Positions 18,588 to 64,000 of a stretch of 64,000 bases of DNA are shown here, piece after piece. Origin of the DNA: a virus. The translations under genes were made by a program, and so were the position numbers. The notes under the pieces are model-generated. The model did no database searches. It saw nothing but the letters and a program-made list of their open reading frames with translations, and was not told where the DNA came from. The stretch lies in IMG/VR virus record IMGVR_UViG_3300020469_000011, positions 82,511 to 146,510 of that record, one strand, 5' to 3'. Position 1 is the stretch's first letter; each line of letters starts with the position of its first letter.

Positions 18588-18663
18588 GCGAGAATAGCTC
18601 AATAAGGCAGAGTACAGTCTTACCAAGATTGTGGTGCAGGTTCAATTCCTGCTTCTCGCTCCA
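18588..18663 (+). tRNA. tRNA-Gly, anticodon ACC
   Basis: Acceptor GCGAGAA/TTCTCGC, U73, encoded CCA; D-stem GCTC/GAGT; anticodon arm CAGTC-TTACCAA-GATTG; T-arm GCAGG-TTCAATT-CCTGC. Confidence 0.9.
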
Positions 18664-61748: not shown

Positions 61749-62362
61749 AAACTTTTAATCAGTTTCTAATAGAAAAGAAAAACTCTTCCATTGAGCTTCT
61801 TGGTTGGCCAAGAGCAGATGAATTTACAGGATTAAAAATGAAATACACTGAAAAATTGAAAATTGCAAAAGAAAATTCTAAAAAAGTTGGAGATGGATCT
61901 ACAAGAACAGTTTTTGAAATTGATTTTAAAAATAAACCTACAGTAATGAAAATAGCAAAAAACGAAAAGGGTTTAAGACAAAATTTATCTGAAGTTAATG
62001 TATATAAAAAATATAATAATAATCCACCATTCATGTTACCTATGATTGATTGGGATGATAATGATGATGCTGATACGGCATGGATTCATGTGATGAAATC
62101 GGCTAAATTATCTGAAGGAATTTTTTATCGTTATTTTGATGTTACGTTTGAACAGTTTAGTAAAGCATTATCAGATTATATCAATAAAAATAAAAATGAT
62201 GACCTTAATAGATTGAATATAGTTAAATTCATAAAATTTGTTAAAGATAACGATTTAATGTTGGGTGAGTACAGACAAAAAAGTAATTGGGGTTCTTGGA
62301 AAGAAAAGCCAGTTATAATTGATGCTGGAGTTACCAGAACAAATCAGGAGTTAACTTTATAA
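61745..62362 (+). CDS. Capsid-targeted protein-kinase-like protein
   Basis: Leader MKTFNQFLIE; GDGSTRTV P-loop, VMKIA, QN.SE, NWG, IIDAG. Confidence 0.65.
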   Translation: MKTFNQFLIEKKNSSIELLGWPRADEFTGLKMKYTEKLKIAKENSKKVGDGSTRTVFEIDFKNKPTVMKIAKNEKGLRQNLSEVNVYKKYNNNPPFMLPMIDWDDNDDADTAWIHVMKSAKLSEGIFYRYFDVTFEQFSKALSDYINKNKNDDLNRLNIVKFIKFVKDNDLMLGEYRQKSNWGSWKEKPVIIDAGVTRTNQELTL

Positions 62363-62367
62363 AAAAC

Positions 62368-62396
62368 TTGACATTTTTAATAAATTATGTTAGAAT
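62368..62396 (+). promoter_or_regulatory. sigma70-type promoter for the small ORF/tmRNA/grx/prx unit
   Basis: TTGACA-17nt-TAGAAT with extended -10 TG. Confidence 0.8.
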
Positions 62397-62426
62397 AGTA
62401 TTTCTTAACTTTAATAATAAGGAATT

Positions 62427-62585
62427 ATGAAAAGAAGAAGAGGTAGAAAAGCTTCAAAAAGAACAGTTAGATGTACTATTTGTACTACTCATCGTTGGTT
62501 AGGAAACAATGAAGGTAGGTGGAATATCAACACAAAGAAAAAACATTACGCTACAAAAGAGCAGTTAAAAGAATTTACTTGTTGA
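62427..62585 (+). CDS. 52-aa very basic CxxC peptide (not in the ORF track)
   Basis: MKRRRGRKASKRTVRCTICTTHRWLGNNEGRW...; SD AAGGA. Confidence 0.6.
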   Translation: MKRRRGRKASKRTVRCTICTTHRWLGNNEGRWNINTKKKHYATKEQLKEFTC

Positions 62586-62835
62586 CCTGAAAAGATAATC
62601 GCTACGGACCCGAGTTGCGATACTCGGCGGCTCCACCAAGATAGCATTTTACGAAGTGCTATGTTAGGGGCCGAATAGATTCGACGTGGGATGAAAATAT
62701 CAGAGAGAGTAGATAGGGTGATGACCAACATCAAACCTTATAGTCGCAAACAACAATGACTATGCACCTGTACTTGCCGCAATAGCAGCATAATACAGCG
62801 GGGATTAGGGTTGTTCCTTGTTACTAAAACAACCC
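62586..62835 (+). ncRNA. ssrA: Circularly permuted (two-piece) tmRNA; tag ANNNDYAPVLAAIAA
   Basis: 3' acceptor half GGAC-CCGAG..CTCGG-CGGCTCC-ACCA ends at 62638, before the 5' half GGGGCCG-AATAGATTCGAC at 62667; G3:U70 pair; resume codon GCA at 62746 to TAA at 62793; outer boundaries approximate. Confidence 0.9.
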
Positions 62836-62869
62836 AATTAATTATTAACCCGTGTCTATTAAAGGAGAT

Positions 62870-63115
62870 ATGCAATTAGATATTAAAGGTTCGGTGGTTT
62901 TTAGACATATCACTTATCCAGATTGTGAAAAGTGTGAAGAAGGTGCAGAATTAATGCGAGAAAGAGGAATACGATTTGCTACAATAACTTGTGATAAATC
63001 ACTATTCGGTGCACTAATGGCTGAAACCAAATCACAAGACGTTCCACAATTTTTTGTAAAAGGCAAATATATTGGTGGTCTGACTGAATTGAAAGCTCAC
63101 TTAGAAACATTATAA
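62870..63115 (+). CDS. Glutaredoxin-like protein
   Basis: CEKC; VPQFFV.G.YIGG..EL; SD AGGAG before the ATG at 62870. Confidence 0.8.
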   Translation: MQLDIKGSVVFRHITYPDCEKCEEGAELMRERGIRFATITCDKSLFGALMAETKSQDVPQFFVKGKYIGGLTELKAHLETL

Positions 63116-63136
63116 CACACATACACAGGAAAAATT

Positions 63137-63631
63137 ATGATTGTTCCAGAAAAGAACTTTAGAGTACGAATGGGTCCAGATTGGCACGATGCTACTACAG
63201 ATGATTATTTTAAAGGTAAAAGAGTAGTTGTGGTATCTTTACCAGGTGCATTTACACCTGTTTGTAGTAGTAAACAATTACCAGCTTTTGAAGCAGCATA
63301 TGACCAAATGGTTAGTTTAGGAGTTCATGCAGTTTATTGTATGAGCGTAAATGATAGTTTTGTAATGAATGCATGGGCAAGTAGTTTAGGAATTGAAAAA
63401 ATTGAAATGATTCCAGATGGAGATGGTCTATTTACAAGAGGTATGAATATGCTAGTAGATAAACCTTTTCAATGTTTTGGTCTAAGAAGCTGGCGTTATG
63501 CAATGGTAGTTGATAATAAAAAAGTAGAAAAGATGTTTATTGAAGAAGGATTTAACAATCTTGGACTTGATGACGATCCCTACGTAGAAAGCACGCCTGA
63601 TAAAGTTTTAGAGTATTTAAACTCAATCTAG
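63137..63631 (+). CDS. Peroxiredoxin (Prx5-like)
   Basis: LPGAFTPVCS..QLP; SVND.FVM.AW; FG.RSWRYAM. Confidence 0.93.
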   Translation: MIVPEKNFRVRMGPDWHDATTDDYFKGKRVVVVSLPGAFTPVCSSKQLPAFEAAYDQMVSLGVHAVYCMSVNDSFVMNAWASSLGIEKIEMIPDGDGLFTRGMNMLVDKPFQCFGLRSWRYAMVVDNKKVEKMFIEEGFNNLGLDDDPYVESTPDKVLEYLNSI

Positions 63632-63645
63632 TTTACACTCAAATC

Positions 63646-63727
63646 CTAACATAAATCTAACAAAAAATACAAATTTATTGTCTATATACATAAGTGGGTT
63701 GCAGTAAAGCAACCTGCTCATTATAAT
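63646..63727 (+). promoter_or_regulatory. Pho-box-like repeat plus sigma70-like promoter upstream of a permease-like gene
   Basis: CTAACA repeated at 11-nt spacing (63646, 63657); TTGCAG-17nt-TATAAT (63699-63727). Confidence 0.4.
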
Positions 63728-63755
63728 AGATAATATCACAACAAAAGAGAGACTA

Positions 63756-64000
63756 ATGGATGCAACATTACTCTATACAGTTGTTGGATTTACGCTTGCA
63801 AGTTACTCGGTTATCGCTAATGATTCCGTTCAGACATTGGGTACTTGGATAGCTTCAAATTCTAGCAAATTTAAATGGTATTTTATGTGGATGGCAGCAA
63901 GTTTAGTGCTGTTGTTTACGCTTTGGTATGGTTGGTTTGTTAATAACGGTGACATATCATACGGCAGACTAACAAAAATTCCTTACCAAACAGTAGAATG
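63756..64000 (+). CDS. Partial membrane protein, phosphate/sulfate permease (PiT-like)
   Basis: MDATLLYTVVGFTLASYSVIANDSVQTLGTWIASN... (ANDS..T.G resembles the PiT GANDxAN signature); truncated by the window end. Confidence 0.55.
   Translation, partial: MDATLLYTVVGFTLASYSVIANDSVQTLGTWIASNSSKFKWYFMWMAASLVLLFTLWYGWFVNNGDISYGRLTKIPYQTVE

Follow-up and report, generated by a model that had tools for sequence, protein, structure and literature searches.

A probably working alphaproteobacterial-type two-piece tmRNA gene encoded by an uncultured T4-like marine myophage

A permuted tmRNA gene near the end of a marine phage record

The DNA analyzed here (the window) spans the terminal 64 kb of an IMG/VR record of 146,510 bp and contains a genuine permuted (two-piece) tmRNA gene, whose match to known families lies far beyond chance. 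From its sequence, this gene is very probably a working ssrA gene of the alphaproteobacterial type, encoded by an uncultured T4-like marine myophage. The part of this reading with direct support comprises the match in sequence and structure, conservation with covariation among phages, the intact tag frame, and the location in a phage genome. An earlier note on this DNA had proposed a phage-encoded, circularly permuted two-piece tmRNA that could be checked with covariance models, and the outcome was positive with two Rfam families. The permuted tmRNA family (RF04321) matched positions 62575-62793 with 88.7 bits (gathering cut-off, 47; E value, 1e-15; full model, positions 1-213), and the alphaproteobacterial tmRNA family (RF01849) matched 62525-62838 over the full length of the model with 67.2 bits (gathering cut-off, 50). 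Within its clan, RF01849 was the top-scoring family at the locus, the overlapping clan matches being lower. The loop of the 3′ hairpin aligned with the RF01849 consensus, as expected for a 3′ element of the alpha type, and the 5′ hairpin of that model is missing, the corresponding region being coding sequence of the upstream gene, ORF52.

ARAGORN called no tmRNA at the locus. Deletion of a single U from the T loop, introduced as a diagnostic edit, made the program call a permuted tmRNA with the identical tag, ANNNDYAPVLAAIAA. The miss is thus explained by the 8-nt length of the T loop and is no argument against the gene. Ten of the 21 family sequences tested, the present locus included, escaped ARAGORN, and phage tmRNA counts published on this basis are therefore likely underestimates. 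The features of the locus are as follows.

62368-62396, + strand: sigma-70-like promoter (TTGACA, 17-nt spacer, and TAGAAT with TG in front; 11 of 12 consensus positions)
62427-62585, + strand: ORF52, encoding a 52-aa basic protein (AAGGA precedes the ATG; homologues exist)
62573-62638, + strand: acceptor piece, minimum extent (from the Rfam alignment, coordinates, RNAduplex geometry, and covariation)
62639-62666, + strand: intervening spacer of 28 nt (9-bp hairpin with a UACG tetraloop)
62667-62838, + strand: coding piece, predicted extent (acceptor 5′ strand at 62667-62673, 3′ strands of the inter-piece helices, PK1, tag frame, and 3′ pseudoknot)
62716-62732, + strand: PK1, predicted first pseudoknot (GGGU/ACC and GAUG/CAUC able to pair)
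62746-62793, + strand: tag frame, ANNNDYAPVLAAIAA plus TAA (alanine resume codon GCA at 62746, with UAUAGUC just before it)
62799-62835, + strand: 3′ pseudoknot (stem 2 and a proposed stem 1)

Architecture of the two pieces

The acceptor half precedes the 5′ half of the molecule, as noted earlier: the acceptor 3′ strand CGGCTCC (62628-62634) is followed by ACCA (62635-62638), and GGGGCCG begins at 62667. Positions 62628-62634 and 62667-62673 form an acceptor stem of 7 bp, all seven of them standard pairs, which includes the alanine identity pair G3:U70 (G62669:U62632) that had been pointed out before. The 5-bp T stem, CCGAG/CTCGG (62610-62614/62623-62627), closes the atypical 8-nt T loop that had also been recognized (TTGCGATA, 62615-62622; the typical length is 7 nt). 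The trinucleotide GAC (62607-62609) lies between this stem and the 5′ strand of helix P2a.

Three helices identified with RNAduplex join the two pieces, i.e., an outer helix of 8 bp (P2c, 62573-62580 with 62707-62714), a middle helix of 4 bp (P2b, 62587-62590 with 62700-62703), and an inner helix of 8 bp (P2a, 62598-62606 with 62685-62692, G62601 being bulged). RNAduplex recovered this 8/4/8-bp geometry independently in nearly every relative, with compensatory changes; the near-identical L136 and L152, which depart in the middle helix, are the only exceptions. Compensatory changes in the outer helix are exemplified by AUUUACUU/GAGUAGAU in the window, AUUUGCUU/GAGCAAAU in L180, and AUUUGUUU/GAACAAAU in L137. 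Since this covarying helix starts at 62573, the acceptor piece must span at least 66 nt (62573-62638), rather than the approximately 50 nt that the earlier note had given for a start after the upstream ORF, at 62586. It consequently overlaps the last 13 nt of ORF52, including the TGA codon (62583-62585), located in the internal loop that separates P2c from P2b. No separate promoter serves the acceptor piece, which means that either its 5′ end needs cleavage or the piece carries the ORF52 message. The description of the RNA as "minimal" was likewise overstated: three inter-piece helices, a predicted PK1, and a 3′ pseudoknot or hairpin make up the usual alpha-type set.

The 28-nt spacer and its UACG-capped hairpin, both described previously, are present. 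The hairpin (−8.2 kcal/mol; z, −3.45) is kept in L189, L203, and L205 through a compensatory change of G-C to A-U. In the coding piece, the tag reads as previously proposed, with a canonical resume context (UAGUC-GCA) and a hydrophobic C terminus ending in AA. The sequence block of PK1 was fixed by the search patterns used to collect relatives, and its constancy among them follows from this selection. This block is likewise present in one-piece phage tmRNAs and in those of Acidobacteriota, Mycobacterium, Bifidobacterium, and other bacteria; its use as a marker of host lineage was rejected because these bacteria are unrelated. Five IMG/VR contigs with this block (L123-L125, L127, and L129) carry standard one-piece tmRNAs (80 to 92 bits on RF00023), which in L123, L125, and L127 lie beside tRNA genes, about 30 of them in L127.

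At the 3′ end, the stem of the closing hairpin identified earlier (GGGTTGTT/AACAACCC) is stem 2 of a pseudoknot, in which GGGUUGUU (DNA GGGTTGTT, 62808-62815) pairs with AACAACCC (62828-62835). This stem covaries among the relatives (GAGGCUGUU/AACAGUCUC, GCGGGGUAU/AUACCUCGC, and GGGAGU/ACUCCC). The proposed stem 1 pairs CGGGG (62799-62803) with CCUUG (62816-62820), the first five bases of the loop, and the pairing is retained elsewhere as CGAGG/CCUUG, CGGGU/ACCUG, and CCGAG/CUUGG. Taken alone, the closing hairpin is thermodynamically ordinary (z, −0.8). The two stems together align as a pseudoknot to the alpha consensus 3′ element, and the hairpin is therefore a structural element of the RNA instead of a terminator. 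After the coding piece, no terminator was found, and no T run follows the closing hairpin. The block TTATTAACCCGTGT[C/A]TA, at 62843-62861, lies directly after the tmRNA and recurs in L142, L189, and L204 despite different next genes; it may be a processing or promoter signal.

Conservation among viral relatives

More than 120 IMG/VR contigs showed a generic permuted-tmRNA signature in pattern scans, and the specific family related to the window gene comprises at least 25 distinct viral sequences. Two exact patterns designed for close relatives gave no match, and a blastn comparison of the locus, along with two relatives, against 50,697 records of cultured phages revealed no real match. Because length differences led MAFFT to displace the T arm and acceptor stem, base pairs were counted on anchor-extracted strands. 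In the 25 distinct relatives, the acceptor and T stems had standard pairs in 100% of cells, and acceptor pairs 5 and 6 and all five T-stem pairs each occurred as two or three pair types. In the shuffled-partner control, the T stem paired in 69% of cells on average and in 83% at most. G3:U70 was invariant in these 25 sequences, and the tag frame was open in all relatives, with the form ANNxDY...A[LIM]AA.

One other IMG/VR contig and five metagenome contigs, the latter from different projects, have an identical T arm with the 8-nt loop. These contigs differ from the window in the inner helix, the spacer, the tag, and the 3′ pseudoknot; in L202, the inner helix reads CUUGAUACG/CGUAUAAG and the spacer hairpin is different from that of the window. 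A loop that stays constant while its surroundings change is under selection and is not an assembly error. As a naturally conserved variant, it offers a test case for the tolerance of AlaRS, SmpB, and EF-Tu.

Proposed function in ribosome rescue

The promoter at 62368-62396, a site called purely by its match to the consensus, is the sole one on the + strand upstream of ORF52 and the tmRNA gene; no equivalent promoter was found in the relatives upstream of their ORF52 copies. Transcription from it, probably early in infection, would yield a single precursor that extends from ORF52 through the acceptor piece and spacer to the coding piece. The hairpin spacer would presumably be lost through cleavage by host RNase P before G62667 and through 3′ trimming that halts at the encoded CCA (62638). 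Base pairing in the acceptor stem and in helices P2a to P2c would keep the two resulting pieces together. Host AlaRS would charge the RNA by virtue of G3:U70, and host SmpB and EF-Tu would bring it to stalled ribosomes, where translation would restart at the GCA codon (62746) and append ANNNDYAPVLAAIAA, marking the peptide for proteolysis. The likely benefit to the phage would be that ribosomes are kept free and amino acids are recycled while host mRNA is being destroyed. The record is 68% complete and contains no SmpB gene, so that function would depend on how well the RNA fits host SmpB.

A tmRNA look-alike could instead rewire or block host trans-translation, either by competing for SmpB or by directing tagged proteins to a different fate. 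The viral tags (ANNxDY...) do differ from those of the sampled alphaproteobacterial tmRNAs, which begin ANDN, and the failure to find a phage SmpB fits this idea, as does a tag-less mycobacteriophage tmRNA reported to inhibit host tmRNA, according to work cited in PMC11915505. We nonetheless regard such interference as distinctly unlikely, given that the tag frame is intact, the UAGUC-GCA context is canonical, and the A-A C terminus resembles that of ordinary degradation tags, although the sequence itself offers nothing that separates supply of trans-translation from its rewiring.

Comparison with known two-piece tmRNAs

Two-piece tmRNAs of the alpha type are known in the OM43 myophage Melnitz and in pelagimyophages (Buchholz et al. 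2022, PMC9004378). Among marine T4-like myophages, they have been described in Melnitz, in the Pelagibacter phages Mosig and HTVC008M, and in metagenomic genomes of pelagimyophages; overall, phage genomes yielded 53 unique two-piece tmRNAs, of which 50 were marine or aquatic (PMC9004378). Upkeep of the hijacked translation machinery and recycling of amino acids are the functions discussed for those of the Melnitz type (PMC9004378). The 2025 tmRNA database holds 79 bacteriophage sequences (PMC11915505). The kind of gene reported here has thus been published before (PMC9004378), and the window gene is a divergent addition, which adds an uncultured lineage to the marine phages carrying their own ribosome-rescue RNA. 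What is new is the conserved 8-nt T loop and the running of ORF52 into the tmRNA gene, two traits that set the window apart from the known marine myophage tmRNAs.

The window shares with Melnitz and the pelagimyophages an alpha-type permuted ssrA gene in a low-GC marine T4-like phage in which no phage SmpB was found. The sigma-70-like promoter, located 170 nt upstream and ahead of ORF52, was counted as a further likeness to the marine myophage tmRNAs. Unlike the Melnitz type, the window has no glutamine riboswitch, as no glnA-type Rfam match with an E value of ≤10 was obtained in 61800-64000; nor were CsgG or psbA genes found in the phage record, a further difference from the known marine myophages. 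In the RefSeq record of HTVC008M (NC_020484.1), positions 145161-145370 (L166:1501-1710) hold an unannotated permuted tmRNA (90.6 bits; tag, ANFNEYALAA), the 5′ part of which extends over the end of gp194, an annotated hypothetical gene. In both phages, the tmRNA gene lies near the end of the genome or record and close to a peroxiredoxin gene. Strict synteny is unsupported, the 205-aa ORF upstream in the window having no match in HTVC008M. After the window tmRNA, a glutaredoxin-like gene (probable start, ATG at 62870) and the peroxiredoxin gene occupy 62852-63631, and the peroxiredoxin is 54% identical to HTVC008M gp198. L142 is devoid of these two genes and has a homologue of the last ORF of the window (63756-63998) directly after its tmRNA.

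The alphaproteobacterial two-piece tmRNA modeled by RF01849 is the Caulobacter type (Keiler et al. 2000, as cited in PMC9004378). The window gene resembles it in the order of acceptor piece, spacer, and coding piece, in the inter-piece helices, and in the 3′ hairpin loop, which is similar to the consensus ACCUGGCAACAGAA. It differs in the missing 5′ hairpin of the alpha model and in a tag that starts with ANNN rather than ANDN, and its score is modest (67 bits, versus about 140 bits on RF04321 for two bacterial genes tested).

Small ORFs linked to permuted tmRNA genes

Judged from its homologues, ORF52 is a real conserved gene family. These fall into 16 protein clusters with 56 to 94% identity and share the invariant core SKRTV-C-T-x-C...RW-GN...RW. 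Searches of Pfam, PHROGs, PDB sequences, and a protein atlas returned no match that would assign a function to ORF52, tblastn against the 50,697 cultured-phage records returned nothing, and longer fused forms were looked for and not found. The AlphaFold model has low confidence (pLDDT, 62.5) and is too uncertain for a fold search.

A permuted tmRNA lies within 3 kb in 20 of the 21 IMG/VR loci that encode an ORF52 homologue, in three layouts. In the first, ORF52 runs into the acceptor piece (the window, L180-187, L189, and the metagenome contigs L203-205). In the second, the homologue is located 0.5 to 1.8 kb upstream (L142, L121/122, L188, L191, and L199/200). In the third, the spacer contains the homologue, which is preceded by a Shine-Dalgarno sequence of its own immediately after the CCA (L194-197, which belong to a different alpha-type tmRNA subfamily). 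The permuted tmRNA at L194:2914-3334, as in L195-L197, scores 97 bits on RF01849, and its spacer encodes the homologue MAKYRRKGRKASKRTVRCTLCTTYRW..., with TAAGGA directly after the CCA and a stop codon 1 nt before the GGGG of the coding piece. The converse does not apply: of an initial collection of 20 tmRNA-family loci (with two further loci of HTVC008M), only 3 carry ORF52. Other relatives have spacers of 99 to 111 nt that encode hydrophobic peptides of 28 to 30 codons, e.g., MEKIAMYLAIITLVALMLVYGILYFGYDFR (L131, L132, L136-L138, L141, L144-L146, L149, and L152), most of them with a Shine-Dalgarno sequence (AAGGA) right after the CCA, and the spacer of L148 contains a hydrophilic ORF of 56 codons instead. 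A group I intron match (54.8 bits) was also detected at L146:1327-1559, about 4 kb from the tmRNA of that contig. The ORF52 linkage and the gene-bearing spacers suggest that phage stable-RNA precursors double as messages.

ArfA and BrfA are small rescue factors encoded by non-stop mRNAs that tmRNA keeps at a low level. The ORF52 stop codon lies inside the acceptor piece, so that excision of the tmRNA from a shared transcript would leave a non-stop ORF52 message. By analogy, ORF52 thus resembles ArfA and BrfA as a small basic protein that would lose its stop codon if the acceptor piece were excised; no similarity in sequence or fold was found. We tentatively consider, as a rather unlikely interpretation, that the ORF52 family is a dedicated partner or a regulated client of phage two-piece tmRNAs. 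As a client, ORF52 would have its level tied to trans-translation activity in an ArfA-like manner; as a partner, this basic protein with its CxxC motif might associate with the tmRNA or with ribosomes, and its recurrent placement before, overlapping, or inside permuted tmRNA genes would reflect function and not hitch-hiking.

These same layouts, together with the hydrophobic spacer ORFs and their Shine-Dalgarno sequences directly after the CCA, could also mean that the tmRNA gene is mainly a platform for processing and expression, in which tRNA-like ends serve as punctuation through which small messages such as ORF52 and the spacer ORFs are released or regulated, and rescue is secondary. This is highly unlikely, since most members of the family lack a nearby ORF52 and have a short spacer devoid of ORFs, and the tag frame and the whole tRNA-like domain, which punctuation alone would not need, are still conserved. 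A working tmRNA with a role in ribosome rescue remains the preferred reading.

Phage genome and origin of the gene

The record to which the window belongs has a CheckV completeness of 68%, and the GC content of the window is about 30%. The window encodes a gp5-like baseplate hub with lysozyme, a DNA polymerase and a helicase of the gp43 and gp41 types, respectively, and ribonucleotide reductase, which identifies the virus as a T4-like myophage. Its DNA polymerase shares 42% identity with the closest counterpart from a cultured phage, which is a cyanomyophage, and 37% with the HTVC008M enzyme. Genes for SmpB, integrase, psbA, and CsgG were not found in the 146.5 kb of the record. That the locus is a host fragment acquired by capture, the remnant of an attachment site, or a pseudogene in decay, as the aberrant T loop and the common use of tmRNA genes as integration sites by islands and prophages (PMC4383910) might suggest, is scarcely credible, given that both pieces are complete, no integrase was found in this T4-like genome of lytic type, and compensatory conservation extends over many viral contigs, the aberrant T loop itself being conserved.

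The earlier note had also taken the gene as a clue to the host. The alpha type indeed suggests an alphaproteobacterial origin of the gene, but it is a weak guide to the current host, as Melnitz carries an alpha-type tmRNA and infects a gammaproteobacterium (PMC9004378). A BLAST search of the gene against 401 alphaproteobacterial genomes yielded only matches of 30 to 45 nt, mostly in the tRNA-like part, with 15 genomes at an E value of ≤0.01; the difference in tag onset noted above, ANDN in the sampled alphaproteobacteria versus ANNx, applies to the viral family as a whole. Elsewhere in the window, ARAGORN identified a tRNA-Gly gene at 18588-18663 (Rfam tRNA score, 58.6 bits), whose anticodon, ACC, is uncommon in bacteria and phages.
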